Below the pieces are notes generated by a model. It was given only the letters and a program-made list of their open reading frames with translations. It was not told where the DNA came from and searched no databases. DNA of 64,000 nt from an uncultured Gammaproteobacteria bacterium (GTDB lineage Bacteria; Patescibacteriota; Microgenomatia; JAMCZE01): positions 19,260 through 83,259 of the forward strand of contig CAZSSJ010000002.1 of the NCBI GenBank assembly GCA_964609775.1, read 5' to 3'. Position 1 is the first letter of the stretch. Each line of letters starts with the position of its first letter. The translations under genes and the position numbers were made by a program. Of this stretch, positions 396-37,539 are shown in pieces.

Positions 396-1947
396 CCACC
401 AGCCAAAGCCACTGTCTCTAATTATCCTGGTAACCGTTCTCCTTGCGGCCTTCTTCCTTCGCACCTGGCCGACTCTGAGTGACACCACCCATTTTTCCTT
501 TGATCAGGGCCTGGACATGATCATGGCCAAACTGTTGATCGTCGATCACCAGATCAACTTAATCAGTCGCCACAGTGGACTTCAGGGCGTCTTGATGGGC
601 CCCCTCTGGACTTATTTTCTGGCCACCCCTTTTGCCCTTTCAGGTGGTCACCCCTCCGGCAACGTCATCTTCCTGTCTGTTTTTAATCTGGTCACCTCTG
701 TTCTGGCAACTGTGCTGGTCGGCCGGAAATTCGGCTTGACTGCCGGAGTTGTTACCGGACTTTTTTTTCTGTTCTCACCCTCCTTCATCACCGGTTCTCA
801 AGTAGTCCTTAGTCCTTATCCTCTAATACCCTTATTTATTTTTTTCCCCCTACTTGCCCACGAAACCCTAGTTAACAAAAGCAGTCGTTTCGCCTGGCTT
901 CTCATGCTGCTCTTGGGACTATACTTTCAATTCGAAGTCGGCTTTGCCATTTTTGCCCTTCTCGCTTTTGTTGTCCTTTTTGTTTTTTTCCACTCGTGGT
1001 GGCTTTTTAAAAAGCGGTCATTCTGGGCAGGCTGTGGGCTTTTTGTCTTGACATTTTTGCCCCAGATCCTTTTTGACCTTCGCCACCAATTTCTGATAAC
1101 CAGCGGTTTGTTAGCCTACTTTACTGGCAGTAATACTAGTCTTTACCAGAAGTCAGCTCCACTCATCATTCGCCTCGCTCAGCGATTATATTCATTCTAT
1201 GAAGACGCGACCGCAATGGCATTTTTTGGCCATTGGTCGGTGAATATTGCTCTTCTTCTTCTGGTGGTTTCCGGCTGGATAGTCGCTCTAAAGCATGACG
1301 CAAAAACCCATCGGAAATTTTTGCAAATGATCCTTTTGACATTGGCGTCTTTTTTTATCGGTTTTACCCTTTATCCTGGTCCGATTTGGGGTTGGTATCG
1401 AATTGGCCTACCGGCAATCTACATCTTTCTTGTTTCCATACCAACTGGCGTCCTTTGGCAGAGAATGTATCGTCTTCGGCCGTTAATTCTGATCGTTCTA
1501 ATCGCACTATTTTTGACTGGCGTCAAACCCTGGACTCTCTGGCACCTATATAAAAATCCAGGTGTTGGCGGAGTGGGGACACTCAATAATCAAAAAAAAG
1601 TCATCGACTACGTTTATTCTCAGGCAGAGGGAAAGCCGTTCAACTATCTCGTCTATACCCCGCCGGTCTATGACTACATCTGGCAATATGACTTTTGGTG
1701 GTACGGAAGACAAAAATATGGCTATCTTCCGACAAATTGGCAAATGAGTGTGCCCCTATTGGGAATCGGGGAACAATCCAAACCTCCTGCCACCAAAGAA
1801 CCTTTCTTTCTCATTATTGAGCCAAATACCGACCACCCCGACGAATCCGTCAATTGGAAGAAGACTTTAAAACTAGAGCCAGCAGATTCAAAAGCTACTC
1901 TTCCCGGAGGAATTATCGTCGAAAGTCGGCAAGGCGACAATTTATGA
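382..1947 (+). CDS. Polytopic membrane protein, divergent ArnT/PMT_2-like GT-C candidate
   Basis: ORF 358-1947. ATG 382 (MRLSSHQPKPLSLIILVTVLLAAFFLR) gives a 14-nt overlap with the upstream stop. It has many hydrophobic segments. Its C-terminal soluble tail (FNYLVYTPPVYDYIWQYDFWWYG) resembles the tails of the GT39-like paralogs downstream. Confidence 0.45.
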   Translation: MRLSSHQPKPLSLIILVTVLLAAFFLRTWPTLSDTTHFSFDQGLDMIMAKLLIVDHQINLISRHSGLQGVLMGPLWTYFLATPFALSGGHPSGNVIFLSVFNLVTSVLATVLVGRKFGLTAGVVTGLFFLFSPSFITGSQVVLSPYPLIPLFIFFPLLAHETLVNKSSRFAWLLMLLLGLYFQFEVGFAIFALLAFVVLFVFFHSWWLFKKRSFWAGCGLFVLTFLPQILFDLRHQFLITSGLLAYFTGSNTSLYQKSAPLIIRLAQRLYSFYEDATAMAFFGHWSVNIALLLLVVSGWIVALKHDAKTHRKFLQMILLTLASFFIGFTLYPGPIWGWYRIGLPAIYIFLVSIPTGVLWQRMYRLRPLILIVLIALFLTGVKPWTLWHLYKNPGVGGVGTLNNQKKVIDYVYSQAEGKPFNYLVYTPPVYDYIWQYDFWWYGRQKYGYLPTNWQMSVPLLGIGEQSKPPATKEPFFLIIEPNTDHPDESVNWKKTLKLEPADSKATLPGGIIVESRQGDNL

Positions 1948-4010
1948 TCGGTGACTTCCTGCCACTGCAAACAAATCTTTTACCCTATTGGTTTTTTCCC
2001 TGGAACACTAATTCCTGGTCAGGCTTTACTCCCTTTATTTTCCACAAGGAACTATTAGCTATCGACGCTCTGCGCCAGATTTTTGTCTGGAAAGAATTTG
2101 CTTTTTCCCAAATCAGACTAGGTGGGTGGCCGCTCTGGAATCCCTACAGTTTTTCCGGTCAGCCGCTTTTGGCCAATTTCCAATCCTCGGTTTTCTATCC
2201 GTTGTCTTGGTTTTTTATGTTTCTGCCGCCCATGATTGCCTGGGCGGCTTATGTTTTTAGTCAGCCGCTCCTTTTAGTCACTTTTATGTTCTTCTGGATG
2301 CGACCAAAAGTGGGTGCCGTTGCCGCCCTTTTTGCCGCCCTCGCCCTTGCAACGGCCAGTTTTTTTGCCACCCGCTATTTCTGGGGAGTCTACGTTCATT
2401 CGCTGTTATGGATTCCTCTGGGGTTAGGCCTGATTGACCGCTACAAAGAAGCCAAAATCAAAACATCATCTTTCGTCGCCTCTTTTTCCCTGGTTTGTGT
2501 CTTAACGGTTCTGGGTGGTTATCCTCAGTTTGGCTTGTACGCCATTGCCCTTTTGGGAGCGTACTATTTGTATATTTTTGGCAAAAAGCGCCTGCTCCTC
2601 TTTCTCCTTTCCCTGATTTTGGCCTTGTTAATTTCCGCCGTCCAGTTAATCCCAACAGCCGAACTATACCGCTATTCGCTTCGTGAGGGAACTGCCTCAG
2701 CCCGGACCTTTAGCGATTCCCTCTTGTCTCCGAAATACCTTGCTACCATAGTTTACCCCGACATGTTTGGCAGTCCGGCAGTTAATGACTACACTGGAGG
2801 CAAAGACTACTCTGGTGTCAACGGCTATTTTGGCGTCGTCCCCTTTCTTCTGGCTTCGGGTGCTGCTATTTTCTTACGAAGGGACAGACAAGTTAGGTTT
2901 TGGATCGCCGTTGGAGCATTGGGGCTACTTCTTGCCTACGACAATCCTTTTGCTCGGCTACCTCAGGTGTTGCCCTTGCCCATCATAAGCAGCGGGAATG
3001 CGTGGCACAACCTTTTCTTTTTTCAGTTTGCCGGTGTCGTATTAGCCACAATTCTACTTACCAGGTTACCAAAGAGAGCCATTCTCATCTGTCTCCTGTT
3101 GACAACCTTCTTAGGCTTCTATTATTCACTGAAAGTGTCACCCTTCGGACAGACCAAATATTTTTATCCTCCCCACCCTCTTCTTTCTTGGCTAAGGCAA
3201 AATGCTGGCCTAGATCGGTTTTATGGTTATCGCAGTTCCCACTTTCTTTCTAATCTTTCCACCTACTATCGCATCTATAGTCCCGAGGGCTATGACAGTC
3301 TTTGGCCGTCTTGGTACGGAGAGTTACTTTCCTCCGCTGACAGAGGTAAAGTTCCTCCGGAAGTAAATCGGGCGGATGTCTCCGTGACTGATTGGGACAC
3401 TTCCTACCGGCGTAAATTGCTAAATCTTCTGGGGGTCAAATATTTTTTAGACAAATCTGATAAACCCGGCGGCGACCAAGGTCCAAACCTGGCCAAGTAC
3501 CCGGCCGGGCAATTTGTCTTAAGGAAACAATGGGGAGAAGTGTCCATCTATGAAAACAAAGAGGCCTTGCCGAGAGCTTTTTTGGCAGACGGCGTCATCT
3601 CTGCCCCAAAATCGGAAGTCATCGAGAAAATCTATTCTTTGCCCTCGCTTCGGACCATCATCTTGGATTCACCACCCGGCCTGGGGTCAAAAAAACTGAC
3701 CACCGGATCAGCGAGTATTAAAAAATATCTTCCCAATGAGGTAATCGTGACCACCAATTCCCCTGGTAATTCCCTCCTCTTTTTATCCGATACCTACTTC
3801 CCCGGTTGGGATGCTTTCGTAGACGGCCACAAAGCAAAAATCCTTCGGGCTGACTATGCCTTTCGGGCAGTCCCTGTTCCTCCCGGAAAAAATGAAGTAA
3901 GATTCATATATCAACCAAAATCATTTTTTCTTGGGATTTCTATGAGTTTATTAGGGAGCGCGATCTGGCTATGGCTGTTGTTAAAAAATTTTTTCAAGAA
4001 AACTGGCTAG
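1944..4010 (+). CDS. YfhO-like GT-C membrane glycosyltransferase (paralog 1)
   Basis: ATGA overlap with the upstream stop. Motifs: FFPWN, WPLWNPYSFSGQPLLANFQSSVFYPL, and C-terminal LSDTYFPGWDAFVDGHKAKILRADYAFRAVPVPPG. About 690 aa and polytopic. Confidence 0.6.
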   Translation: MIGDFLPLQTNLLPYWFFPWNTNSWSGFTPFIFHKELLAIDALRQIFVWKEFAFSQIRLGGWPLWNPYSFSGQPLLANFQSSVFYPLSWFFMFLPPMIAWAAYVFSQPLLLVTFMFFWMRPKVGAVAALFAALALATASFFATRYFWGVYVHSLLWIPLGLGLIDRYKEAKIKTSSFVASFSLVCVLTVLGGYPQFGLYAIALLGAYYLYIFGKKRLLLFLLSLILALLISAVQLIPTAELYRYSLREGTASARTFSDSLLSPKYLATIVYPDMFGSPAVNDYTGGKDYSGVNGYFGVVPFLLASGAAIFLRRDRQVRFWIAVGALGLLLAYDNPFARLPQVLPLPIISSGNAWHNLFFFQFAGVVLATILLTRLPKRAILICLLLTTFLGFYYSLKVSPFGQTKYFYPPHPLLSWLRQNAGLDRFYGYRSSHFLSNLSTYYRIYSPEGYDSLWPSWYGELLSSADRGKVPPEVNRADVSVTDWDTSYRRKLLNLLGVKYFLDKSDKPGGDQGPNLAKYPAGQFVLRKQWGEVSIYENKEALPRAFLADGVISAPKSEVIEKIYSLPSLRTIILDSPPGLGSKKLTTGSASIKKYLPNEVIVTTNSPGNSLLFLSDTYFPGWDAFVDGHKAKILRADYAFRAVPVPPGKNEVRFIYQPKSFFLGISMSLLGSAIWLWLLLKNFFKKTG

Positions 4011-6325
4011 TCATCTTTGCTCTGGGTGTCTCCAATCTTGTTTCTTTTTGGCAATTCTACCTTAAGGGTTTGTTACCCTTTCCCGGGGACCTTCTAGTTT
4101 CCTTTTTCTTTCCTTGGAACTCTGGAGGGTTTGTGGGCTTTGATTCCTGGACCACCCACAAGGAATACATCGCCTCCGACGCTCTCCGTGCCCTTTTCCC
4201 CTGGAAGGTCGAAGTCATCCGTCAATTCTTAAGCGGCAATTTTCCTTTGTGGAACCCCTTCAACTTTGCTGGTACACCGCTTCTGGCTGATTTCCAGTCC
4301 GGAGCCTTTTTTCCCACTAATCTTCTTTACGCCTTTCTGCCTCCTCTCACCGTCTGGATTCTCCAAGTGCTAGTTCTCTTGAGTCTGTTTGCCTTTTTTT
4401 CCTATCTGTTCCTGCGTGCCCTCAAACTCTCACCACTTGCCAGTGCTTTTGGAGCTGTTGTTTTGTCGAATTTACCCTATTTGGTCAACTGGCACGAGAT
4501 CCTCGTCGTGACGCAAAGTGCCCTCTTCTTGCCTCTGGATTTGTACCTACTTGAGAAATTTGCTCAAACAAAAAAAACTATTTATCTTTTTTTTCTGCCC
4601 CTTTTTTTGGCCTTCGCAATTTTTGCTGGCCATCCCCAGACAATCATTATGGTCTTCTTTCTCATCGGAAGTTATGCTCTTTTCCGCCGCTTGTCTTTGG
4701 GCAGAATTTTCCTAATTTTCGTAATCTCACTTCTTTTGGGTGCTGTCCAGTTGTTGCCGTCCTGGCAGTTTTATGAATTCTCGGCCCGGGAAGCAGGAGA
4801 CACGGCTAAACTTTTCCTTGACCACCTCTTCCCGTGGCGAAACGTAATAACCGCCCTAGCTCCGGATTTCTTTGGCAATCCGGTGACCGGAAACTTTTGG
4901 GGGTGGGATTATCACAACTCTCTTGCTTATATTGGTGTGACCGCTTTGTTCCTGGCCCTGTTTTCGTTCTTTTGGCAGTCCAGGAGAAGAGAGGTTGGCT
5001 TTTTTGCCCTGCTGGCACTTATTGGCTTGTTGCTGGCCACCTCTCCACTGGCCAACATTTTTCTCTTCTTTAAAATCCCGATTCTCTCCACCGGCATTGC
5101 CGCCAGGAATATTTTTTTCTGGCAGTTTTCTTTGGGAGTTCTCTCCGCTTTTGGTTTGGACTATCTCCTAAATAAGGTCCGACAAAGCAGGTCTCGGTGG
5201 CATTTTGCCCCCCTAATATTTCTTCTAGTTTTATATCTACTGCTTTGGGTTGTTGTCCTCACAAGCTCTTCCCCGGAGTTTCTTATAAGTCGCCATAATC
5301 TGATTCTCCCCACGGCCATCTTTATCCTGACAGCCATCCTGATTCTCGGCGTCATTGTCCAGCCAAAAATAGGAAAATATCTTCTCTTTGTGCTTTTAGC
5401 ATTGGCAATCTTTGAACAGGGGCGCTATTTTAATAAAATCGAACCCTTCGCTAGCCCCGCCTTTGTCTTTCCCGACCACCCGGTCCTGACTTTTTTGCAG
5501 GAAAATGCCGGAACCAACCGCTTTATCGGAGCAGGGACAGCCAAAATTGATAGCAACTTTGCCACCTACTACCGCATTTTTGACCCCCAGGGCTATGACC
5601 CACTCTATCTTCTTCGCTATGGCCAGCTGCTCGCGGCCTCAAAAAATGGCGGTAAAAAAGCGCCTGTCATCTCCCGGGCTGATGCGATGATCGCCAATTT
5701 GGACCGAAATGATGGCTTTAAAGACCGCTTACTCGATATTTTGGGAGTCAAATACGTCCTCGATAATGAAAATATGTCTGTCGCCAGAGACTGGGAACCG
5801 GGGACTCTTGAGACTGCAAACAACCGCCATCTGCTTGTTTGGCAGCAAGAGAACAAGTGGAAAATTTACGAGCGACAAACCGCCCTCCCCCGAACCTTTT
5901 TGGCCGGAAGCTATGAAGTTGCCTCCTCTGATGAGGCAATTTTGGCACGTCTCTTTGATCCAGACTTTGCTGCTCAAGACAAAATTATCTTGGAAAAAGA
6001 TCCCGGTTTTCCAATCACCAATCAAGGCTCTGCCGAGGCAGTAATCACTCATTATTCTCCCAATACCGTCACGATTCAGACCCGTTCCGACCACCCTCGG
6101 CTGCTTTTTCTTTCGGATAATTACTATCACGGTTGGCTAGCAACCCTTGACGGCCAAAAGGCGGAGATTTTTCGGGCTAACTACACTTTTCGCGCCGTTG
6201 CCGCCCCTTCCGGATCGCACGTGGTGGAATTTAGATATAGTCCGGAGTCATTTCGCCTTGGACTAGTTGTCAGCGTTCTGGGTTTGCTGCTATGGCTAAA
6301 ATTTTTGCGACCAACAAGAAGCTAA
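3971..6325 (+). CDS. YfhO-like GT-C membrane glycosyltransferase (paralog 2)
   Basis: 784-aa ORF. Motifs: FPGDLLVSFFFPWNSGGF, FPLWNPFNFAGTPLLADFQSGAFFP, and C-terminal LSDNYYHGWLATLDGQKAEIFRANYTFRAV. Overlaps the upstream gene by 40 nt. Confidence 0.6.
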   Translation: MAVVKKFFQENWLVIFALGVSNLVSFWQFYLKGLLPFPGDLLVSFFFPWNSGGFVGFDSWTTHKEYIASDALRALFPWKVEVIRQFLSGNFPLWNPFNFAGTPLLADFQSGAFFPTNLLYAFLPPLTVWILQVLVLLSLFAFFSYLFLRALKLSPLASAFGAVVLSNLPYLVNWHEILVVTQSALFLPLDLYLLEKFAQTKKTIYLFFLPLFLAFAIFAGHPQTIIMVFFLIGSYALFRRLSLGRIFLIFVISLLLGAVQLLPSWQFYEFSAREAGDTAKLFLDHLFPWRNVITALAPDFFGNPVTGNFWGWDYHNSLAYIGVTALFLALFSFFWQSRRREVGFFALLALIGLLLATSPLANIFLFFKIPILSTGIAARNIFFWQFSLGVLSAFGLDYLLNKVRQSRSRWHFAPLIFLLVLYLLLWVVVLTSSSPEFLISRHNLILPTAIFILTAILILGVIVQPKIGKYLLFVLLALAIFEQGRYFNKIEPFASPAFVFPDHPVLTFLQENAGTNRFIGAGTAKIDSNFATYYRIFDPQGYDPLYLLRYGQLLAASKNGGKKAPVISRADAMIANLDRNDGFKDRLLDILGVKYVLDNENMSVARDWEPGTLETANNRHLLVWQQENKWKIYERQTALPRTFLAGSYEVASSDEAILARLFDPDFAAQDKIILEKDPGFPITNQGSAEAVITHYSPNTVTIQTRSDHPRLLFLSDNYYHGWLATLDGQKAEIFRANYTFRAVAAPSGSHVVEFRYSPESFRLGLVVSVLGLLLWLKFLRPTRS

Positions 6326-8616
6326 TTCTGGTTTTCCTGTGCCTGTTAGCGGCCAATGTTGCAATTTTCTGGCAGTTCTATTTTCGTGGACTTTTGCCCT
6401 TTCCCGGCGATCTACTGGTGTCATTTTTCTTTCCCTGGAACTCTGGCGGCTTTGCCAATTTTGATCAGTGGACCACTCACAAAGAAGTCATCGCCGCCGA
6501 TGTCATTCGGCAAATGTATCCTTGGAAAGCCCTCCTAGTCAACGCCGTAAAGAACGGCACCTGGCCTCTGTGGAACCCCTACAATTTTTCTGGAACTCCG
6601 CTTCTGGCTAATCTTCAGTCATCCGTTTTCTTTCCGGCCAATGTTGTTTTTCTCTTTTTGCCCCGGCTTGTTTCCTGGATCAGTCTCGTCATTTTTCTCC
6701 CCCTCATTTTTTCCATTTTTTGCTATCTCTTTTTACGCTCTTTAAACATTAGCCGGCTCGCCAGTCTCCTCGGAGCAATCATCCTGTCAAATATTTCTTA
6801 TTTGCTCGTCTGGTCAGAGCAATTGGTCTTTATTCAAAGTGTTCTTTTCCTGCCACTCTCCCTGTTGCTAATTAATTATTATTCAGTTTCAAAAAAACCA
6901 CTTCTTCTCCTCCTTTTGCCCCTAACCTTATCTTTTGCCGTTTTTGGCGGTCACATCCAAACAGTTGTCTATGTTTGTGTTGTGGTAACTTTATATGCCC
7001 TTTTCCGCCGCCTGCCAATCAAATACCTTTTTATCATCGCTCTTTCGACCATAGGCCTGTCATCACTACAACTTCTTCCTTCTCTCGAACTGTATCTCTA
7101 TTCAGCTCGCGAGGGAAATGCCTCTGCCCAGTTGTTTCTTGAATCTGTCCTTCCGATCCAAAATCTCGCCACCATTCTTGCTCCGGATTTCTTCGGCAAC
7201 CCCGCCACCGGCAATTTTTTCGGCTCTGACTATGGCAATAATCAGGTCTATTTCGGAGTATTGGCAGCATTTTTTTCCGTCGTTGGACTTTATTACGGAC
7301 TGAAGGGAAAAAAGAGTTTGACGCTTTTTTTTGCTCTCGTTGGCCTAGGAGGTCTGGTGTTTTCTCTAGATCCTTTTGCTCGCTTGTTTCTTGTTTTTAA
7401 AATCCCGGTTCTTTCTTCAGCGGTCGCTGCCCGAGGAATTTTCATTTTTCAATTTTGTTTTGCCGTCGTGGCCGCTTTGGGAATTGATCAATTTCTGGCA
7501 AACACAAGGAAACGAGCAATAATTACTATTTTTTTCCTCTTTCTCGGCTTCTACCTGCTCCTATATTTTTCCACCAAGTTAATTCCCAATCACGCCACTA
7601 TTGCTCAAAAGAACCTAGTTCTGCCCTTGCTGGTCCTACTTTCCACTGGTGTGACCGCCTTTCTCTCCCGTTTTCGAAGGCAAGCAGCCGTTGTTCTCAT
7701 TCTAATTGCCACTTTGGAATATGCTTATTTTTTCAACAAATTTGCCCCCTTCGCCAGGAGAGAGTTTGTCTTTCCTGGGCATCCGGTTTTCAATTTTTTG
7801 ACGACGCGGGCGGAAGTTGACCGGTTTTACGGCTTCGGGACAGCCTATGTTGACAATAATTTTGCCTCCTACTACCGCGTCTTTTCCGCCGAGGGCTATG
7901 ACTCGCTATATATCAAGCGCTATGGTGAACTTCTCGCCTCCACCAAAAACGGCCAACTTCCCCCAGATGTTCCCCGTTCTGACGCCCTCTTTACAAGTCA
8001 AGACAACGTCTTCCGTAACCGGCTCTTTGATCTTTTAGGCGTCAAGTATATCCTTGATAAAAATGATAATCCCCAGTCAAATTGGGAACCGGAGAATGAC
8101 AAATTCCCCGAGGAGCGCTATAAGCTTGTCTGGCAGAAACTGAAATGGAAAGCCTATGAGAGAAAAACCGCCTTGCCTCGGGTATTTCTCGCCGATTCAT
8201 TCCTCGTTACCAATTCCGACCAGCTGATATTGTCAAAAATGTTTGACCCCCGATTCGATCTGGCAGCCACCGTGATCCTTGAAAAGAACCCCCCTTGGGA
8301 ACTTGCTCCGGGAGGGAAAAGTGAGGCAAAAATGAGCAACTACCGGGAAAACATGGTTGTCATTGAGACACAAGCTGACAAACCCAAAGCACTTTTCTTA
8401 TCAGATACCTACTACCCCGGTTGGAAAGCTACTCTTGATGGAAAACCAATAGATATCTATCGAGCCGATTATATTTTTAGATCCGTCATGGTTCCGTCTG
8501 GAAAACATACTGTCATTTTTAACTACGATCCTGAAACTTTTAAATTTGGGCTTGCCCTTTCAGGATTATCAGCCGCTCTTCTCTTGATAACCATCTTGCG
8601 AAAATCGCATCCATGA
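6292..8616 (+). CDS. YfhO-like GT-C membrane glycosyltransferase (paralog 3)
   Basis: 774-aa ORF. Its N-terminus is nearly identical to paralog 2 (FPGDLLVSFFFPWNSGGF). Also has WPLWNPYNFSGTPLLANLQSSVFFP and C-terminal LSDTYYPGWKATLDGKPIDIYRADYIFRSV. Confidence 0.6.
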   Translation: MAKIFATNKKLILVFLCLLAANVAIFWQFYFRGLLPFPGDLLVSFFFPWNSGGFANFDQWTTHKEVIAADVIRQMYPWKALLVNAVKNGTWPLWNPYNFSGTPLLANLQSSVFFPANVVFLFLPRLVSWISLVIFLPLIFSIFCYLFLRSLNISRLASLLGAIILSNISYLLVWSEQLVFIQSVLFLPLSLLLINYYSVSKKPLLLLLLPLTLSFAVFGGHIQTVVYVCVVVTLYALFRRLPIKYLFIIALSTIGLSSLQLLPSLELYLYSAREGNASAQLFLESVLPIQNLATILAPDFFGNPATGNFFGSDYGNNQVYFGVLAAFFSVVGLYYGLKGKKSLTLFFALVGLGGLVFSLDPFARLFLVFKIPVLSSAVAARGIFIFQFCFAVVAALGIDQFLANTRKRAIITIFFLFLGFYLLLYFSTKLIPNHATIAQKNLVLPLLVLLSTGVTAFLSRFRRQAAVVLILIATLEYAYFFNKFAPFARREFVFPGHPVFNFLTTRAEVDRFYGFGTAYVDNNFASYYRVFSAEGYDSLYIKRYGELLASTKNGQLPPDVPRSDALFTSQDNVFRNRLFDLLGVKYILDKNDNPQSNWEPENDKFPEERYKLVWQKLKWKAYERKTALPRVFLADSFLVTNSDQLILSKMFDPRFDLAATVILEKNPPWELAPGGKSEAKMSNYRENMVVIETQADKPKALFLSDTYYPGWKATLDGKPIDIYRADYIFRSVMVPSGKHTVIFNYDPETFKFGLALSGLSAALLLITILRKSHP

Positions 8617-10103
8617 CCAAAAATACTTTCTTTTTTCTCATTATCCTCCTCCTCCTGCTCATCCCCATTGTCGTCCCTCTTGTCCAGCCCGGTTTCTTTG
8701 TCTCTGATGATGGCGACTGGATGGTTATCAGGCTATCCGCTTTCCACGAAACCCTCAAAACCGGCCAGTTCCCGGTTCGCTTTTTAGAAAGGCTCAATCA
8801 TGGCTACGGCTACCCGGTGACTGACTTTCTTTATCCTCTACCTTTCTATTTGGGAGAAATAATCCATCTCCTGGGCTTCAATTTTGTCGATTCAGTAAAA
8901 ATTCTTTTTGGCATGAGTTTTCTTCTCGGGGCTTTTTCCATGTTTTTCTACGCCAAAGATAAGTGGGGGAATCAGATAGGAATTATTGCTGCCGTTTTTT
9001 ACACTTATTTTCCCTACCGAATTTTTGACGTCTACAAACGTGGCTCGCTGGGAGAATCAGTCGCTTTTGTCTTTATCCCTCTGGTCTTTCTTTTTTATGA
9101 CCGCTTAGTCACCACCAAAAATCTAATATATCTTTCGTTTGGCGCTCTAGCCACAGCAGCCATGATAACCTCTCACAATACCGTTGCTTTTCTTACGTTA
9201 CTTGTCCTCATCGCATATATAACTACTAATCTTTTCTCAAAGACCGAAAAAAAATGGCTAATACTGTCCTCTATGTCTTATCTTGGTCTCTCTTTGACTC
9301 TTTCCGCCTTTTTTGTTATTCCGGCCCTTGTTGACCTCCAGTTCACTAAGACAAGGTTAATCACAATTTCTGATCCAACACGGTTCTTTCTTTCGTTAGA
9401 CAATCTTTTAAGTCTAGCCGGCATCCCAATAATGTTGATCACCGGTGCAGCCATACACCTAATTCGTAAGGGATCACGCGGGGTGGTATTTTGGACAGCT
9501 ATATCAATAGTCTCAATCCTGATGGCCATGTCCGTTTCTGATGTCCTTTGGGCAAATCTATCGTCACTTTCTAAACTAGTCCAATTTCCTTGGCGCTTTC
9601 TTTCGATTACGGCTCTAGCCGGAGCAATCTTAACCGGATTTTTGTTAAGCCACTACAGAATCAAGATATTATTCCCCCTCCTCATAATCTTGCCTGTCAT
9701 TTTCTCAGGAATATTGACACTAAAAATAGACAGAACTTTTCACCCAGAAAGCTATTACACTACCAACGACGACAGCACTACTGTCAAGAACGAATATATG
9801 CCCATTTGGGTAAAAAAAGACCCCACCAACCTTCCTAAGGAAAAAATTGCCTGGATAGACTCAAATCTTGTTCGAGTCAACACTGTATACTTCCCCGGTT
9901 GGGCAGCCTATGTCAATGGGCAAGAAAGGGAAATAATCTACCAGGACGATGGCCTAATCAAATTCGCTGCCCGACCAGACGACAAAATTGAACTTCGCTT
10001 TGAAGAAACTCCACTGCGGGCGGAAGCTAACCTTGTCACCATTTTGGGAATCTTCCTGGCCTTGGCTTTAATACTTTTGCCCCCCAAAAGTCAAATCACA
10101 TGA
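8613..10103 (+). CDS. PTPS-related-type polytopic membrane protein (GT-C candidate), paralog 1
   Basis: ATGA overlap. The N-terminal loop SDDGDWMVIRLSAFHETLKTGQFPVRFLERLNHGYGYPVTDFLYPLPFYLGE matches my recollection of the PF10131 family. C-terminal VYFPGWAAYVNGQE. Confidence 0.5.
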   Translation: MTKNTFFFLIILLLLLIPIVVPLVQPGFFVSDDGDWMVIRLSAFHETLKTGQFPVRFLERLNHGYGYPVTDFLYPLPFYLGEIIHLLGFNFVDSVKILFGMSFLLGAFSMFFYAKDKWGNQIGIIAAVFYTYFPYRIFDVYKRGSLGESVAFVFIPLVFLFYDRLVTTKNLIYLSFGALATAAMITSHNTVAFLTLLVLIAYITTNLFSKTEKKWLILSSMSYLGLSLTLSAFFVIPALVDLQFTKTRLITISDPTRFFLSLDNLLSLAGIPIMLITGAAIHLIRKGSRGVVFWTAISIVSILMAMSVSDVLWANLSSLSKLVQFPWRFLSITALAGAILTGFLLSHYRIKILFPLLIILPVIFSGILTLKIDRTFHPESYYTTNDDSTTVKNEYMPIWVKKDPTNLPKEKIAWIDSNLVRVNTVYFPGWAAYVNGQEREIIYQDDGLIKFAARPDDKIELRFEETPLRAEANLVTILGIFLALALILLPPKSQIT

Positions 10104-11749
10104 CAGGGAAAATTGTCATGCTAATTCTTGCCTCAATCATTCTGCTAGGATTTCTTGTCCGCCTATACAGACTTGGCAATATTCCTAACGGCTTTTTCTT
10201 TGACGAAGCCACCATTTCCTACCAGGCATATAGTTTACTCCAGACGGGTAAAGATACCTGGGGAACTGACTTTCCTTTATTGTCATTTAGAGATTATGGA
10301 GAGTACATTTTGCCAATCGGCGTTTATGGTCAAATTCCTAGTCTATTAATTGGAGGGCTAAATGTCTTATCTGCTCGGTTTCCCCATGCTATTTTGGGAA
10401 TACTTAGTGTCCCATTAGTATATTTTTTAGCCAAAGAACTGTTTAAGAACACTAAAATTTCTCTTTTATCTTCATTTTTACTAACAATATCACCTCTTTC
10501 AATTGGTTGGACACGTTTTGTGTTCGAAGGTAATTTCGGGACAGTCCTTTTCTTGAGTGGGACACTTCTTTTCGCCAGGTCTTTAAAAAAGCCCCGACTT
10601 CTACCCTGGTCAATCCTTTCTTTTGGTCTGTCAGCCCTTTCCTATCACATATTTTTAATCCTCACTCCACTTTACTTTTGCCTGCTCTCTCTCCTGAATC
10701 GAAAATCCCCAAGTCTGATTGGACACATAAGACCCATAACTCTCATCATCGTTGTTTTCTTCCTCGCCTGGATCCTGGCTGCTATCGCCTCAGGCGCTGG
10801 TCGGCAGCGCTTTTCCCAAGCCTCAACTCTTCTTACACCTCAAAAAATTGACAACCTCAACCATCAAATTGGCTACTGTTCAAACCAAATGTCTCTCACC
10901 CTGTGCAAAGTATTTCTAAATAAGCCAGTCTTAGCAGCGACCAGCTACCTGGAAAACTACCTCGCCCACTTTTCGCCGGTCTTTTTAGGATTTGACGGGA
11001 CATTCCTTCGCCAAAATGTCTTGCCCAAGTCGGGAATACTTTTACCTGTGGAAATGGTCGGCTTTTTCGTGGGATTATTTTTTCTTGTCAGATCACCTAC
11101 TTCTTTAGCGAGCCGGATTTTATTACCGATAATCCTGATCTATCCCGTGGCTAATAGCTTCACTGGTCTGGGAGAAATCAGCCGGATTGCCTTTGCCAGC
11201 CCCTTTCTCTCGCTTGTCGCCGCCTATGGTTTGGTGCGAATCACCCAAACTTTCCGGGTGTTTAAGCCCCCGCTTTTTCTGGCTATTCTTTACAGCGTTG
11301 TCAGTTTCCTCATCACTTATTTTCTAATCTTCCCCAAAACTAACGCCTACTACACCAATTTTGGCTACGACAAAGTATTTTCTTGGGTGCGGGCCAATCA
11401 GTCTAAATATGACCGGATTTTTATCTCCCGCAACTATGCCGGTTCCGTTCCCTACATTTCTGCCCAATTTTTCCTGCCCATTGATCCGCAGATGTTTCAA
11501 AGGGGTCAAGTGGAGAGAAAAAAATCGCCTGAGGGTTATTATCAGATTGAATCCGTTGACCAGAAATTTCGATTTTTTCAAAATTTACACTCTGAAGCTC
11601 TTAAGCCAAATGATTTTGTTGTCGCCACCCCTGAGGACATTCAATCTTATGCGCTAACGCCGAAATTTACTATAATTGATCCCACGGGGAGAAAACTGCT
11701 CCTTGGCGTTGAAGCAAATGAAATTTTGGCAAAAACTGCTGTCCCTTAG
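10100..11749 (+). CDS. PMT_2/GT39-like (ArnT-like) GT-C glycosyltransferase
   Basis: ATGA overlap. N-terminal helix, then LYRLGNIPNGFFFDEATISYQAYSLLQTGKDTWG (loop-1 Asp-Glu motif). Polytopic core with a soluble C-terminal domain. Confidence 0.6.
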   Translation: MTGKIVMLILASIILLGFLVRLYRLGNIPNGFFFDEATISYQAYSLLQTGKDTWGTDFPLLSFRDYGEYILPIGVYGQIPSLLIGGLNVLSARFPHAILGILSVPLVYFLAKELFKNTKISLLSSFLLTISPLSIGWTRFVFEGNFGTVLFLSGTLLFARSLKKPRLLPWSILSFGLSALSYHIFLILTPLYFCLLSLLNRKSPSLIGHIRPITLIIVVFFLAWILAAIASGAGRQRFSQASTLLTPQKIDNLNHQIGYCSNQMSLTLCKVFLNKPVLAATSYLENYLAHFSPVFLGFDGTFLRQNVLPKSGILLPVEMVGFFVGLFFLVRSPTSLASRILLPIILIYPVANSFTGLGEISRIAFASPFLSLVAAYGLVRITQTFRVFKPPLFLAILYSVVSFLITYFLIFPKTNAYYTNFGYDKVFSWVRANQSKYDRIFISRNYAGSVPYISAQFFLPIDPQMFQRGQVERKKSPEGYYQIESVDQKFRFFQNLHSEALKPNDFVVATPEDIQSYALTPKFTIIDPTGRKLLLGVEANEILAKTAVP

Positions 11750-13454
11750 CCCTCTTGTTGTTCTCTTTATCGCCTCATTTTGGTCCTGGAAGCCGCTTCT
11801 GGCCTCCGGCTTTTTTACAATTCATGACAACCAGCAGATCGCCCGGCTGTTTGAATTAAATAAAGCTCTTCTTGCTGGTCAGTTTCCCGTTCGCTGGGTG
11901 CCGGATCTGGGTTTTAGCTTTGGCTACCCGCTCTTTAATTTCTATCCGCCCCTGATTTATTATCTCGGCGAACTCTTTCATCTGTTGCTCGGGACAGGAT
12001 TCATTGACTCAATTAAGATAGTTTGGTTCGTCGCCCTGGTGGGATCGGGGATTGCCATGTACTTCTTGGCGAAAGAGTACTTTGGCAGAGCAGGAGGACT
12101 CGTTGCCGCGATGTTTTATGTTTACGCTCCCTACCACGCCGTCGACGCCTACGTCCGCGGGTCTTTGGCCGAACTTTTTTCTTTTGTTTGGCTCCCCCTC
12201 ATCCTGCTGGCATTGTATAAAATTGTGACTTTGCCAATAAGCTACGATCGTTGGATTTTGGCAAGCGGTATTCTCCTTGGCCTGCTGATGATCACCCACA
12301 ACCTCATTTTTCTCCCTTTTGTGGGAATATCAGCCCTTTGGTATTTTGCTCTAGTATTAATTTATCGCCGTAACGAACCGGTCCGTTATACTTTATACTT
12401 TATACTTTATACAGCCCTTTGTTTCGCTCTATCAGCCTTTTTCTGGCTGCCGGCGCTGGCTGAAAAACAATTCACCCTCGTTGACCAACTCCTGATTAAG
12501 AATCTGGCTTCCTACCAAATCCATTTTGTCTGCCCGCAGCAGTTATGGAACAGTCCCTGGGGTTTTGGCGGTTCGACTGCAGGTTGTCTTGATGGCCTGT
12601 CATTCAAACTCGGCAAGCTGCACATCTTGGCAGCCATAGCCTCTTTCGGGGCTGTCGCCTACCTCTGGCTTAAAGCTCACAAAAAGCTAGCGTTAGTAAT
12701 TCTTATATCTTATTTCTTATTTTTTATATCCCTGTTCATGACTACTGACTATTCAAAAATTTTGTGGGACAATTTTCCCCCTCTTTGGTACCTTCAGTTC
12801 CCCTGGCGTTTTCTGGAATTTGCCACCCTTTTTGCCGCGCTAATTGCGGGGAGTATCTTGGCGTTGGTCAAAAATATCCCCCTTAAAATATTGGTTACCA
12901 TAACGCTAATTTCGGCAATTCTCTACATCGAAGCTAAAAACTTCGTTCCCCAAACCCACCTCTTCACTGACACAGACGACCAAGAAACTTCTGATGAGCA
13001 AATTAAGTGGGTCATCAGTTCAACTTCGTTTGAGTATCTCCCAAAAGAAGTTGCCACTAGAGTCACAGACCTCGGGACCGTTTGGGTCGATATTGATCGA
13101 TCAAAAATTCCCCCCCGAAAGTATCAAGTTCTCTCCGGAAACTTGCAAAGCACCGAGGAAATATTTCTTCCCCATCGTTTCAAACTCACTGGCCAATTTA
13201 CAAACGAGACGACAATTCAAATTAATGTGGCAAACTTTCCCGGGTGGGAAGTGTGGCTCGATGGTTCCGAAGCACGCATCAGGGATAACAATGCCTATAA
13301 ATTGATCACTATCAATGTCCCCCCAGGAAACCATACACTAACTGGGCAATTTACCAATACCTGGCCGAGGTCCCTAGGTAACACCATTTCCATCATTGCA
13401 CTCATCGCGTTAGCCCTTTACTTTGGAAAATATGGAATTAGAAGAAGTTCTTAA
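11718..13454 (+). CDS. PTPS-related-type polytopic membrane protein (GT-C candidate), paralog 2
   Basis: Start chosen at ATG 11718 (MKFWQKLLSLS). Motifs: HDNQQIARLFELNKALLAGQFPVRWVPDLGFSFGYPLFNFYPPLIYYLGE and C-terminal ANFPGWEVWLDGSE. Confidence 0.5.
   Translation: MKFWQKLLSLSPLVVLFIASFWSWKPLLASGFFTIHDNQQIARLFELNKALLAGQFPVRWVPDLGFSFGYPLFNFYPPLIYYLGELFHLLLGTGFIDSIKIVWFVALVGSGIAMYFLAKEYFGRAGGLVAAMFYVYAPYHAVDAYVRGSLAELFSFVWLPLILLALYKIVTLPISYDRWILASGILLGLLMITHNLIFLPFVGISALWYFALVLIYRRNEPVRYTLYFILYTALCFALSAFFWLPALAEKQFTLVDQLLIKNLASYQIHFVCPQQLWNSPWGFGGSTAGCLDGLSFKLGKLHILAAIASFGAVAYLWLKAHKKLALVILISYFLFFISLFMTTDYSKILWDNFPPLWYLQFPWRFLEFATLFAALIAGSILALVKNIPLKILVTITLISAILYIEAKNFVPQTHLFTDTDDQETSDEQIKWVISSTSFEYLPKEVATRVTDLGTVWVDIDRSKIPPRKYQVLSGNLQSTEEIFLPHRFKLTGQFTNETTIQINVANFPGWEVWLDGSEARIRDNNAYKLITINVPPGNHTLTGQFTNTWPRSLGNTISIIALIALALYFGKYGIRRSS
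12386..12412 (+). repeat. Heptanucleotide tandem repeat (TTATACT) x3 plus a 6-nt partial copy, inside a CDS
   Basis: Read directly: ttatact ttatact ttatact ttatac. It encodes YTLYFILYT. The unit length is not a multiple of 3. Confidence 0.9.
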
Positions 13455-19273: not shown

Positions 19274-20350
19274 ATGAAAGTTGGCATCTATAGCCCCTAT
19301 TTGGACACTTTGGGTGGGGGAGAGCGCTACATTTTGACCGCTGCAGAATTTTTCCTCCACAGAAAAGATAGTGTCGACATTTTCTGGGATAAGGACAGCG
19401 ACTTGCAAGATATGGCCGCCCGTTTCGGACTTGATCTGAAAGGTGCCAAGTTTGTCTCCAATCTTTTTTCCGGAAACTTCAGTTTTTGGCAAAGACTTAG
19501 AAAAAGTTACCGATACGACTTAATTCTGGTTCTCTCGGACGGTAGCATCCCTTTGACGCTGGCAAAGAAAAACTTCATCCATCTTCAAGTCCCATTTCAA
19601 AAATCCAACCGGCCAAAAATAGTCAACCGCCTTAAGCTACTGACATATAAAGCCGTCCTCTGCAATTCATATTTCACTAAAAAGATTATCGATCAGACCT
19701 ATGGCATAACCAGTAGTGTTCTCTATCCGCCTGTTGATGTTAACCGTTTCCAGCCGGGGAAAAAAGAAAAAGTGATTCTTTCGGTGGGTCGCTTCTTTGC
19801 AGCCAGGCACCTGCACAATTTTGCCCCAAAAAAGCACCAAGAAATGATTAGCGCCTTTGAGGAGCTAATTGATTCCGGTCTTAAAGACTGGAAACTTCGC
19901 TTGCTAGGAGCCAATTCTCCCGATCAGCAAAGTTCCCTTGAGCAGTTAAAAAAAATTGCCCAAAACTACCCGATTGAAATTTCGTCCAACGTTGACTATG
20001 AAGATTTAAAGACCAGCTTCGCCCAGGCCTCTATATATTGGCACGCCGCCGGTTTTGGTGAGGATCTGGATAAACACCCAGAAAGAGCCGAGCACTTCGG
20101 CATTACCACTGTTGAAGCGATGGCCTCGGGCGCTGTCCCGGTTGTCTTTGCCGGCGGCGGCCAAAAGGAGATCATTCAGGACTCGGTCAATGGTTTGTTT
20201 TGGCAAACCCCAGGCGAGCTTCAGACCAAAACTATTCAACTCATCAAAAATCAATCTCTAACACGGAAACTAGCTGAAAAAGCCCTCATCAGGTCACGCG
20301 ATTTTAGTAAGCAAAAATTTTTCCGTTCTTTGGAAGACCTCTTGAAATGA
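19274..20350 (+). CDS. GT4 (group 1, GT-B) glycosyltransferase
   Basis: N-terminal MKVGIYSPYLDTLGGGERY. C-terminal EHFGITTVEAMASGAVPVVFAGGGQKEII (E-x7-E type motif). It is the first gene after an 86-bp gap. Confidence 0.8.
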   Translation: MKVGIYSPYLDTLGGGERYILTAAEFFLHRKDSVDIFWDKDSDLQDMAARFGLDLKGAKFVSNLFSGNFSFWQRLRKSYRYDLILVLSDGSIPLTLAKKNFIHLQVPFQKSNRPKIVNRLKLLTYKAVLCNSYFTKKIIDQTYGITSSVLYPPVDVNRFQPGKKEKVILSVGRFFAARHLHNFAPKKHQEMISAFEELIDSGLKDWKLRLLGANSPDQQSSLEQLKKIAQNYPIEISSNVDYEDLKTSFAQASIYWHAAGFGEDLDKHPERAEHFGITTVEAMASGAVPVVFAGGGQKEIIQDSVNGLFWQTPGELQTKTIQLIKNQSLTRKLAEKALIRSRDFSKQKFFRSLEDLLK

Positions 20351-22557
20351 GAAAAAAAATATTTTTCCTTCCGTTGATATTTCTTATCGTTTTTGCGGCT
20401 CTTTTTTATTCTCCCCTAATTTTAGAAAAAAAACTTCCCATTCCGGCGGACACCATCGTCGGTCTGTATCACCCCTGGCGGGACTATTTTTCTAAAAATT
20501 ATCCAAACGGAATTCCCTTCAAAAACTTTCAAATCACCGACTCCGTCCGGCAACAATATCCTTGGCGAAGCCTGTCAATTGATCTGATCAAAAGGGGAGA
20601 GGTGCCAAGGTGGAACCCCTATTCGTTTTCGGGCACTCCCCTGCTGGGGAATTTTCAATCAGCTGTATTCTATCCCCTCAACATCCTCTACCTCTTGGTG
20701 AGCGATTTTGCTTCTGTTTGGGCCATCCAGGTGGTCTTGCAAACAGTTTTGGGTGGAATTTTTATGTGGGCCTATCTCCACAATCTGAAGCTAAAACCTC
20801 AAGCGCAAGTTCTGGGAACCTTGGCCTGGGTCGGCAGCGGATTTTTTATCGCCTGGCTGGAGTGGAACACGGTCGTTCATGTGGCCATCTATTTACCGCT
20901 GGTTCTACTCACTATCGATGAAATCATTCTGGAAAAACATTCCCCCCCAAAAAGCATTTTTTGGCCTTTTGTCTTTGTGGGCGCTTTAGTCAGTAGTTTC
21001 TTTGCTGGATATCTGCAGCCGTTCTTTTATGTCTTTATAACCAGCTTGGTTTATCTGTCAGCCAGAGTGTGGCAGACGAAGAAGTTTCAAAAGCTCCTGC
21101 TGTTTTCAATTCTGTACGTCCTTTTCTTTATCATTAGTCTTCCTCAACTGATCCCGACCTTAAGTTTCATAAATTTGTCCGCCCGCGACGTTGACCAGGC
21201 AAATTGGACTCGGCCCGACTGGTTCCTCCCTTGGCAAAACTTAATTCAGCTCGTTGCTCCCGATTTTTTTGGCAATCCGGCGACTCTCAATTATTTCGGC
21301 GTTTGGAACTATCAGGAGTTTGTCAGTTTCATTGGCACCGCACCACTTGTTTTCGCCCTGGCAGCCCTTTTTATGCGCCGCGATAAAAAGACGCTTTTTT
21401 GGGGAGCTCTTTTGACCTTGACCTTAGTCTTCGCCTTACCCACGCCAATTGCCAGGTTGCCGTACGTTTTAAAATTGCCCTTTCTCTCAACTGCCCAACC
21501 ATCAAGAATAATAATGCTGGTAGACTTTGCCCTGGCGATCCTGGCCGCACTTGGCCTGGATCACTATTTGCGAAAATCCCCGCGCGCTCCTTTGGGCAGT
21601 ACCTTAATTGTTGTTTCGGCCCTGGCTCTTCTACTTATCTTTACTTATAAGTCAGGCCTGCTGGTCAGTCAGAGAAATCTCATTTTACCCCTGGTAATAA
21701 CCGTCGTCGTTTTCTTCCTCCTTTCCGTCGTCCATTTGGTCAAAAAAACTAAATCCGTCATCGTCCTGGCAATTCTCATCCTTACCTTATTTGACTTGCT
21801 TCGTTTTGCGACAAAGTTTGAACCGTTTTCGCCCAGAGAATATCTTTACCCTTCAACAAAAATACTTTCTTTTCTTGAGGGCAAAGCAAAAGAAGAAGTC
21901 TTTCGAGTGGCTGCCCTGGACGATCGCATTTTGCCCTCAAATTTTAATGTTGCTTATAAAATTCAGATGGCCGCTGGCTACGATCCACTTTATTCAAAAC
22001 GCTACGGACAATTTATCGCCTCACTTGAGCGGGGAAAGCCCGACATCTCCCCGCCTTGGGGATTTAACAGAATTATTACCCCCAAACTTGTCGGCAGTCA
22101 CCTTTACGGCCTTTTAAACACCAAGTATGTCCTCTCTTTTGTTGATTTTCCTCAGTTCAAACTTCTTGCTAAAGAAGGGGACACCTATCTATTTGAATAC
22201 CCGGACGCTCTTCCCCGGGCCTTTTTTGTTTCCCGGACGATAAATGCCATCAGCGGTAATGAAGCCATAAGCAAAATATATTCTTCGGACTTTGATTCCC
22301 GAAACAGTGCCGTGGTAGAAAACTTCCGCACCGCTGCCTTTACGACCGGACAGGCAAAGATAACTTCCTATACGGAAAATACTGTCGTGCTTCAAACGCA
22401 AAATACCTCTGAGGGCTTCCTAGTGCTGCTGGACGCCTATTATCCTGATTGGCATGCCACTGTTGATAGTGTTCCTACTCAGATCTATATTACAAACTAT
22501 ATTTTCAGGGGCATAAAAGTGCCACGCGGGAATCATCTCGTGAAATTTCAAATATGA
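20347..22557 (+). CDS. YfhO-like GT-C membrane glycosyltransferase (paralog 4)
   Basis: ATGA overlap. Motifs: VPRWNPYSFSGTPLLGNFQSAVFYPLN and C-terminal LLDAYYPDWHATVDSVPTQIYITNYIFRGIKVPRG. Confidence 0.6.
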   Translation: MRKKIFFLPLIFLIVFAALFYSPLILEKKLPIPADTIVGLYHPWRDYFSKNYPNGIPFKNFQITDSVRQQYPWRSLSIDLIKRGEVPRWNPYSFSGTPLLGNFQSAVFYPLNILYLLVSDFASVWAIQVVLQTVLGGIFMWAYLHNLKLKPQAQVLGTLAWVGSGFFIAWLEWNTVVHVAIYLPLVLLTIDEIILEKHSPPKSIFWPFVFVGALVSSFFAGYLQPFFYVFITSLVYLSARVWQTKKFQKLLLFSILYVLFFIISLPQLIPTLSFINLSARDVDQANWTRPDWFLPWQNLIQLVAPDFFGNPATLNYFGVWNYQEFVSFIGTAPLVFALAALFMRRDKKTLFWGALLTLTLVFALPTPIARLPYVLKLPFLSTAQPSRIIMLVDFALAILAALGLDHYLRKSPRAPLGSTLIVVSALALLLIFTYKSGLLVSQRNLILPLVITVVVFFLLSVVHLVKKTKSVIVLAILILTLFDLLRFATKFEPFSPREYLYPSTKILSFLEGKAKEEVFRVAALDDRILPSNFNVAYKIQMAAGYDPLYSKRYGQFIASLERGKPDISPPWGFNRIITPKLVGSHLYGLLNTKYVLSFVDFPQFKLLAKEGDTYLFEYPDALPRAFFVSRTINAISGNEAISKIYSSDFDSRNSAVVENFRTAAFTTGQAKITSYTENTVVLQTQNTSEGFLVLLDAYYPDWHATVDSVPTQIYITNYIFRGIKVPRGNHLVKFQI

Positions 22558-36081: not shown

Positions 36082-37539
36082 ATGTGGACGAAATTTTCCT
36101 CAGCAGCCTTGTTAATTTTGCTCATCTCCACCTCTCTTCATTTTTACGGCCGATCCTTCACCAACTTTTTCTTCCAGGACGATTTTTTCAATATCACCCT
36201 GTCTCAAAGTCAAAGCATTATTCAATCTTTTAACATTTTTTCTAAGCCGATACTTGACTTCTATTTCTTCCGACCGCTGACGACCCAGCTTTTTTGGGGC
36301 GTGACTTTTCCCGTCTTCGGGTGGAATGTCGCTCCATATCACCTAATCGTATCAATATTTTTTGCCATAAACATATTTTTCATCTATTGGCTATCAACGC
36401 TCCTGACAGACAAAAAGCCCATCGCTCTCTTAACCACATTCCTGTACGCCTTCTCCGCCACGCATTTCCATCGTCTGTTTTTTCTGTCACAGTTCCAAGA
36501 GATCGGCCTGACTACTTTTGTTCTACTGACAATAATATCCTATATTAAAAACAGCAAGCTTTCTTTAGTCTTTTTCATTCTCGCTTTGACAAGCAAGGAA
36601 ACTGCCGTTGTCACTCCAATCTTCCTCCTCGTCTTCAGTGTCCTATCAAGTCGCAAACAATACCGGCTTCTAGCACTGCATTTTCTAATCCTGGGAGTCT
36701 ACTTATTTCTTCGTTTCACCTTTTTTGGTTTTGCCTCTGGGGGCCCGTACACCTACGATTTTAATCCACTCCACGTCATCAATAACTATGTTTGGTACGG
36801 CCTTTGGGCCTTGGGCATCCCGGAGTCTTTCGTCAATTTGAAACTGTTTTTTGTCAACAGATATGATGATCTGGGACAGTGGCAATCGTTCTCGTTTATT
36901 AATCCCGATATATTCACTGCTTTTGGAATCTGGGGCGGGCCAATTATTCTTGTCTTCGCACTTTTGTTGTTAACTCTAATTCTAGCCCTAAACAAAAAAA
37001 ACTGGACCCATTTCTTCCGTCGAGAAAGCATTTTCGCCTCCATGATATTTATCATCTTCCTTTTGCCAGTTGCCTTCTTTCCTTTCCATAAATTTGCCTA
37101 CAGCTTAACACTTCCGGCCATAGGCCTGTCTCTGTTTCTGGCCAACCTACTTATCAATTTTTCTCTGCGTTTCCAAATCTTGTCCCTTGTCTTCTTCATT
37201 GCCCTCTCCTTTTTTACGACTCAATACAATGTTTCCGAGCACTGGGCAGTCAAGAAGGCGATAGTAGCCAAATTGGCTTGGGAATATTTCCGTCAAAACC
37301 ACCCGGAAAACATCACTGCGGACAACATTTATTTTCGAAATACTGACGCGCCCTATTGCTCGATTCTGAAAAATAAATTTAAACCCTCGCAGGAAGTGGC
37401 CTATGGTCTCGGCGGAGCCGATAGCCTCAGGCTTCTCTACAACAACCCAGAGTTGAAAGTTTATTTTGAAGACTTTGACGACAATCATCATTTGATGGCC
37501 GATTCTTTGATGATCGATTCTCGGCAGTTTTTGCCATGA
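36082..37539 (+). CDS. Polytopic membrane protein, GT-C candidate with a loop-1 DD motif
   Basis: 485 aa. TM1 is followed by FTNFFFQDDFFNITLSQ (acidic pair as in PMT/TMTC-type GT-C). Ten or more hydrophobic segments and a short soluble C-terminus. Confidence 0.4.
   Translation: MWTKFSSAALLILLISTSLHFYGRSFTNFFFQDDFFNITLSQSQSIIQSFNIFSKPILDFYFFRPLTTQLFWGVTFPVFGWNVAPYHLIVSIFFAINIFFIYWLSTLLTDKKPIALLTTFLYAFSATHFHRLFFLSQFQEIGLTTFVLLTIISYIKNSKLSLVFFILALTSKETAVVTPIFLLVFSVLSSRKQYRLLALHFLILGVYLFLRFTFFGFASGGPYTYDFNPLHVINNYVWYGLWALGIPESFVNLKLFFVNRYDDLGQWQSFSFINPDIFTAFGIWGGPIILVFALLLLTLILALNKKNWTHFFRRESIFASMIFIIFLLPVAFFPFHKFAYSLTLPAIGLSLFLANLLINFSLRFQILSLVFFIALSFFTTQYNVSEHWAVKKAIVAKLAWEYFRQNHPENITADNIYFRNTDAPYCSILKNKFKPSQEVAYGLGGADSLRLLYNNPELKVYFEDFDDNHHLMADSLMIDSRQFLP

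Follow-up and report, generated by a model that had tools for sequence, protein, structure and literature searches.

YfhO is an established GT-C-type glycosyltransferase of teichoic acid glycosylation in which a large loop separates the last two helices (PMC5836110). A review likewise describes it as a GT-C enzyme, reports AftD as a top HHpred match for YfhO-type enzymes and speculates on carbohydrate-binding ectodomains (PMC8035078). The PTPS_related family is placed in the Pfam GT-C clan CL0111 (PMC7801869), and clustering of AlphaFold models has brought out a large YfhO-like family, 'Component 27' (Durairaj et al. 2023, PMC10584680). We found no paper in the literature that names YfhO and PTPS_related together or describes a C-terminal module shared by them. 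Here, we analyzed a stretch of 64,000 nucleotides (hereafter, the window) from an uncultured bacterium of the GTDB lineage Patescibacteriota, Microgenomatia (assembly GCA_964609775.1, contig CAZSSJ010000002.1, positions 19,260 to 83,259 of the forward strand), which encodes four YfhO-like proteins (Y1–Y4) and three PTPS-related proteins (T1–T3). Judged by sequence comparison, the two families are homologous in their C-terminal regions, beyond mere likeness of a motif. The seven proteins are likely paralogous GT-C glycosyltransferases that form two sister families of one ancestral architecture, with a C-terminal beta-sandwich whose role is probably mainly structural. The proteins, their C-terminal modules (with matches to the module hidden Markov models (HMMs) of the two families, Y_core and T_core) and their motifs lie at the following window positions.

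1944..4010, plus strand: Y1, YfhO-like GT-C glycosyltransferase, 688 residues from the ATG at 1944 (PF09586, 67.6 bits)
3705..3926, plus strand: Y1 C-terminal beta-sandwich module, with TYFPGWDAFVDG (Y_core HMM, E 3e-34)
3971..6325, plus strand: Y2, YfhO-like GT-C glycosyltransferase, 784 residues (PF09586, 71 bits)
6032..6253, plus strand: Y2 C-terminal beta-sandwich module, NYYHGWLATLDG (Y_core HMM, E 3e-34)
6292..8616, plus strand: Y3, YfhO-like GT-C glycosyltransferase, 774 residues (PF09586, 95 bits)
8320..8541, plus strand: Y3 C-terminal beta-sandwich module, TYYPGWKATLDG (Y_core HMM, E 7e-35; hhalign partner of the T3 module)
8613..10103, plus strand: T1, PTPS-related GT-C protein, 496 residues (PF10131, 43.6 bits, model positions 4-343 of 621 only)
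9858..10019, plus strand: T1 C-terminal module, VYFPGWAAYVNG, the shortest version (T_core HMM, E 3e-10; Y_core HMM, E 1.2e-4)
11718..13454, plus strand: T2, PTPS-related-like GT-C protein, 578 residues (full-length BLASTP match to T3, E 8e-58)
13134..13370, plus strand: T2 C-terminal module, ANFPGWEVWLDG (T_core HMM, E 9e-14; Y_core HMM, E 1.8e-5)
20347..22557, plus strand: Y4, YfhO-like protein, 736 residues (PF09586, 79 bits)
22348..22551, plus strand: Y4 C-terminal beta-sandwich module, AYYPDWHATVDS (Y_core HMM, E 5e-25)
37536..39206, plus strand: T3, PTPS-related GT-C protein, 556 residues (PF10131, 52.9 bits, model positions 3-301 only)
38868..39146, plus strand: T3 C-terminal module, LYFPGWQIALDG, with an insert of ~20 residues (T_core HMM, E 1e-29; hhalign to the Y3 module)
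Motif in the YfhO-like proteins: 1944-4010 TYFPGWDAFVDGHKAKILRADYAFR; 3971-6325 NYYHGWLATLDGQKAEIFRANYTFR; 6292-8616 TYYPGWKATLDGKPIDIYRADYIFR; 20347-22557 AYYPDWHATVDSVPTQIYITNYIFR
Motif in the PTPS-related proteins: 8613-10103 YFPGWAAYVNG; 11718-13454 NFPGWEVWLDG; 37536-39206 YFPGWQIALDG

All four YfhO-like proteins score above the Pfam gathering threshold of PF09586 (28.5 bits), a family that we take to be another member of clan CL0111. The topology of Y1–Y3 is like that published for the family, represented by YfhO of B. subtilis and S. aureus, Listeria Lmo1079 and streptococcal PgfM1 and PgfM2: hydropathy scans place the core up to about residue 475, followed by an ectodomain of ~270 residues and, in three of the four window proteins, a last helix (for Y1, a multi-helix core, an ectodomain of ~260 residues and a final helix at residues 662-680). 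Identity to the characterised members is low, with the window proteins reaching 21-42 bits against NCBIfam equivalog cut-offs of 1400-1500. Further differences from the family are the host, a bacterium of the candidate phyla radiation (CPR), and Y4, which stops right after the last module strand (…NHLVKFQI, then the stop codon) and, by hydropathy scan and sequence context, has no transmembrane helix at its end; a similar ending is seen in at least one homologue from the databases (P0238). Y3 is 100% identical to UY21_C0001G0069 of the Microgenomates group bacterium GW2011_GWA1_48_10. Component 27, which we could liken to these proteins by description, is a large and mostly uncharacterised bacterial family within a transmembrane glycosyltransferase superfamily, annotated as YfhO yet distinct from the reference YfhO; the paper is silent on a C-terminal module and on PTPS_related (PMC10584680).

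The module of the YfhO-like proteins corresponds to the C-terminal 80 positions of the YfhO model in Pfam and to the C-termini of the NCBIfam PgfM1 and PgfM2 models, that of Y1 aligning to positions 752-827 of 835 in the former and that of Y2 to positions 808-878 of 884 in PgfM2. T1 and T3 exceed the gathering threshold of PF10131 (26.4 bits) through their N-terminal transmembrane core, and resemble that family in the core, whereas their C-terminal part resembles the YfhO model instead. A match over the whole 621 positions of PF10131 was not found, T1 and T3 covering positions 3-343 at most, and C-terminal fragments of the PTPS-related proteins gave no match to PF10131 even at E 10. Two such fragments aligned in register with the same 80 C-terminal positions of the YfhO model, at E 0.0023 (T2, positions 766-823) and 0.071; besides YfhO, the Pfam scan returned only a weak match to MG1. 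NCBI names T1/T3-type homologues '6-pyruvoyl-tetrahydropterin synthase-related protein', and those of T3 include named Candidatus Curtissbacteria PTPS-related proteins as well as proteins of other Patescibacteria.

A preliminary description of this DNA had noted a common motif in the C-termini of the seven proteins, and all seven sequences do match its wording. A relaxed regular expression run over the six-frame translation of the window returned exactly seven sites, all of them in these proteins, whereas shuffling the residues of the 52 long plus-strand open reading frames 2000 times yielded 0.02 sites on average and never more than 1. The distance of the motif tryptophan from the C-terminus is 62-74 residues in six of the seven proteins and 34 residues in Y4. 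In Pfam, the four YfhO-like proteins are all matched by YfhO, and T1 and T3 by PTPS_related; for T2 we found no Pfam family at E 0.01.

To compare the C-terminal regions beyond the motif, we used profiles built from 120 homologues of one PTPS-related protein and 120 homologues of one YfhO-like protein, restricted to the extracytoplasmic C-terminal regions and excluding the last helix. Alignment by hhalign matched T3 445-531 with Y3 674-746 over 73 columns at a probability (Prob) of 96.5 and E 8.6e-10, with a score of 64.9, and a second comparison on independent alignments of the C-terminal regions gave Prob 95.8 and E 7.3e-9 (70-73 columns over the two comparisons). By comparison, 60 column-shuffled profiles scored 14.3 ± 2.6 (maximum 22.4) and the reversed profile 13.1. 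Removal of the 11 motif columns from both profiles left a score of 31.4, with the G-x-H strand still aligned, indicating that the similarity extends beyond the motif. Within the window, each module HMM ranked its own family first and the other family next (E 1.8e-5 to 0.5), before all other open reading frames, with no match outside the seven proteins, and neither detected the module in the other GT-C paralogues (PMT_2, GT87, PIG-V-like and unassigned). In a pairwise BLASTP comparison of T1 with Y3, the module was the only significant segment (E 3e-4). The common C-terminal domain that had been proposed for the two families is thus borne out by profile-profile comparison.

The predicted structures agree with this homology. 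The AlphaFold model of T3 394-537 (predicted local distance difference test, pLDDT, 81.7) contains strands at 55-62, 66-73, 77-84, [YFPGW], 89-93, 104-106, 121-126 and 129-137, and that of Y3 480-750 (pLDDT 88.9) contains an alpha/beta subdomain followed by strands at 198-206, 209-216, 220-227, [YYPGW], 232-236, 239-246, 250-255 and 258-266, the module strands (ectodomain positions 198-266) having pLDDT above 90. Compared by strand order, both models show the same seven-strand beta-sandwich with the motif in the same place, rather than the unrelated folds that would have spoken against a common domain. The positions conserved in both families are an aromatic-aromatic-Pro, a (D/N)G turn and a G-x-H turn, which look structural, as typical core and turn sites. 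Other residues are invariant within one family only: D, W and R of S-D...W...R in YfhO, and E-T-P-x-R in the PTPS-related proteins. In the latter, the motif tryptophan is often replaced by A/L/V/T/I (YFPGA/L/V, YFPKT, FFPGI, NYPIW) and the YfhO-type R is absent.

The similarity is not confined to the module. Full-length hhalign aligned T 1-371 with Y 4-398 over 345 columns at Prob 99.0 and E 5.5e-18, and a further full-length comparison of the cores gave Prob 98.6 (core E range 8e-16 to 5.5e-18). Together with Pfam matches to GT-C families, the inter-family Prob of 99.0 identifies the cores as GT-C. As a candidate for the acidic residue that GT-C enzymes conserve in the first extracytoplasmic loop, the YfhO-like alignment offers an invariant aspartate in its loop 1 (D70), and the PTPS-related alignment another just past helix 1 (D32, YTSHDG). 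Hydropathy scans give the same order in both families: GT-C core, ectodomain, beta-sandwich and a single last helix. The YfhO-like proteins are longer by two or three helices and by ~190 ectodomain residues; ahead of the sandwich, the PTPS-related proteins carry only ~50 residues compared with an alpha/beta subdomain of ~190 residues in the YfhO type, and hhalign detected no counterpart of these first ~50 residues in the YfhO ectodomain. This part, which in T3 spans residues 394-445 (window 38715-38870) and follows the final helix of the core, contains a strongly conserved NRNHLRIN...Y.G.ATQ..EFTP.WR whose N, R, T and E are invariant. The Microgenomates PTPS-related proteins are a shortened version of the YfhO-type architecture. 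Because the cores are homologous and colinear, the whole architecture appears to have been inherited, and the module is neither mobile nor shared independently of the rest, contrary to the idea of a separately shared module. One superfamily, as suggested in the preliminary description, holds insofar as the families are homologous; it is not new, as PTPS_related and YfhO were both already assigned to GT-C (PMC7801869, PMC5836110, PMC8035078).

These results point to a common ancestor that probably had a GT-C core of several helices at its N-terminus, followed by an extracytoplasmic domain, a sandwich of seven strands and a single terminal transmembrane helix. The sandwich, of ~75-95 residues and carrying Y(F/Y)PGW-x-A-x-(V/L)(D/N)G, is predicted to anchor the soluble portion of each enzyme in the membrane via the last helix and, by analogy with AftD, may pack on the soluble GT-C domain over the cleft of the active site. 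Sugars would come from polyprenyl-phosphate carriers made by neighboring GT2 enzymes and pass to an acceptor in the envelope, with family-specific acceptor contacts possibly provided by S-D...W...R in YfhO and E-T-P-x-R in the PTPS-related proteins. We favor such a scaffold role over a common acceptor-binding site because the residues conserved across the families look structural. Two observations weigh against this reading: D, W and R, which never vary in the YfhO family, might just as well make up a ligand site, and the missing terminal helix of Y4 means that tethering is not obligatory.

We considered whether the module is instead a carbohydrate-binding module (CBM)-like domain that holds the acceptor glycopolymer and is common to both families because both act on polymeric acceptors. 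We regard this as unlikely, although it fares best among the alternatives. The candidate sugar-platform residues differ between the families, given the tryptophan replacements and the absent R, and the positions conserved across them are turn and core residues. No significant match of the modules to CBM families was found by sequence, the only one returned being CBM77 at E 1.1. AftD (PDB 6wbx/6w98; DUF3367) differs from the window proteins in its three additional CBMs, in having four more helices and in binding an acyl carrier protein; its 'structural beta-sandwich', which lies before transmembrane helix 12 and next to the re-entry helix, is distinct from those three CBMs and was named structural. 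AftD and DUF3367 gave no sequence match with our profiles A2, A3 and A4 at E up to 10, leaving a likeness that is structural only, and neither the full proteins nor these profiles matched a solved homologue by sequence.

Domain shuffling offers another account, in which two separate families gained a mobile module independently and the module may also occur free-standing. The module being the sole significant BLASTP segment between a PTPS-related and a YfhO-like protein would fit, as would the many short proteins (104-380 residues) among the best profile matches. With the combined module profile A3, we retrieved 45,532 representatives at E up to 1e-3 and 9,973 at E up to 1e-10 from 1.84 billion proteins, and 79 of the 146 top matches with retrieved sequences were shorter than 400 residues. 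These short matches, however, start inside the YfhO ectodomain or with the final helix of the core, and hydropathy scans show a terminal helix in every one except two; we interpret them as fragments because they carry YfhO ectodomain upstream and the terminal helix downstream. A free-standing domain, for which the preliminary description had suggested a search, was accordingly rejected: among the matches retrieved we saw no free-standing copy, and the short ones look like YfhO-type C-terminal fragments. The place of the module is also constant, just before the last helix. Among the matches listed, its match ends ~25-35 residues before the C-terminus in single-unit proteins and the module stands at the end of each unit in multi-unit proteins, and it is present in every full-length relative from 44 genome loci. 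With the cores homologous and colinear as well, we consider independent gain improbable.

Several database proteins of 1500-3300 residues are putative fusions of two to four complete GT-C units, each ending in the module (P0241-P0245, P0247, P0255, P0258, P0262, P0295, P0325, P0341 and P0345). One of these, P0242 (3329 residues in one reading frame), joins two YfhO cores, a PTPS_related core and a PMT_2 core, with the module after each. Joining of YfhO, PTPS_related and PMT_2 units in one chain could point to oligomerisation of GT-C paralogues through the module, for instance of a YfhO-like with a PTPS-related protein. The genes are also adjacent: the T1 start overlaps the Y3 stop codon at 8613-8616 (ATGA), and in 5 of the 44 related loci (L005, L013, L017, L027 and L028) a YfhO-like gene lies directly upstream of a PTPS-related gene, in the same order as in the window. 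Tandem duplication within a glycosylation island explains such adjacency equally well, however, and AftD is a monomer in its structure paper, leaving little to recommend oligomerisation. Of the two functions named in the preliminary description, we thus rank acceptor binding below a scaffold role, and oligomerisation lower still.

Convergence without common ancestry, on the beta-strand and DG-turn pattern known from PEGA and further Ig-like sandwiches, would draw on how common this fold class is and on the best PDB sequence match of the module profile, a short PEGA-like segment (9k1u_D, a chain of 89 residues from a Ser/Thr protein kinase entry, PGEQVSLDGKPQQV...LAPGRYQLEI, non-significant at E 0.02), but is the least credible account, given a profile-profile score far above the shuffled and reversed controls that survives motif removal, cross-family HMM matches that are specific within the window, homologous flanking core and terminal helix, and no match to PEGA or another Pfam sandwich family. 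Identity with PEGA (PF08308) or another known sandwich family was rejected because Pfam scans of whole and half modules retrieved the YfhO C-terminus only, with no PEGA match at E up to 10.

The seven genes belong to a glycosylation island at 358-42800 whose genes all lie on the same strand except one, a minus-strand gene at 34475-35122; its product of 215 residues has, by Pfam, a PaaX_M / Cas2-like domain (E 3e-17 and 4e-6). The island encodes ~18 GT-C-like membrane proteins (4 YfhO, 3 PTPS-related, ~8 PMT_2, 1 GT87, 1 PIG-V-like and 2 unassigned), an expansion of paralogues that is unusual for a small CPR genome. The two unassigned multi-helix proteins are at 16645-18378 and 36082-37539, and the remaining content includes seven GT2 genes (14874, 15771, 18375, 22554, 35326, 39213 and 42104), two GT4 genes and a Wzx-like flippase. 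The GT2 genes are candidate partners of the YfhO-like proteins, YfhO being an enzyme that passes sugar from C55-P-sugar on to teichoic acid or protein in concert with a CsbB/GtrB-type GT2 enzyme. PTPS-related relatives found by conserved peptides in GTDB genomes were all on Patescibacteria-type contigs, and tandem pairs of PTPS-related genes occur in loci L017, L019, L020, L022, L029 and L041. The contigs of close relatives are often titled 'uncultured Gammaproteobacteria' or 'Pseudomonadales' in Third Party Annotation (TPA) assemblies (L004, L006-L008, L010-L013 and others), which are probably placeholder or wrong taxonomic labels.

With both families being sisters within the known GT-C superfamily, these findings refine annotation and do not define a new system or mechanism. 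More tentatively, YfhO, PTPS_related (with neighboring PMT_2-annotated relatives) and AftD-type enzymes might constitute a distinct structural subclass of GT-C, marked by a membrane-proximal beta-sandwich after which a re-entrant C-terminal helix closes the soluble domain over the active site, with the Microgenomates PTPS-related proteins as its minimal natural form. If so, this signature could serve to sort unannotated GT-C proteins by the tens of thousands and guide the choice of minimal constructs for structure determination. For candidate-phyla bacteria, '6-pyruvoyl-tetrahydropterin synthase-related' is a misleading name for proteins that are shortened relatives of YfhO-type glycosyltransferases, and whose C-terminal 100 residues fall outside the matches to their own Pfam model yet are homologous to the YfhO C-terminus; we suggest that the module receive an entry of its own in Pfam or InterPro. 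The same module provides a domain boundary and a minimal architecture for experimental work on the YfhO/PgfM enzymes, by which Gram-positive pathogens have their teichoic acids and surface proteins glycosylated.

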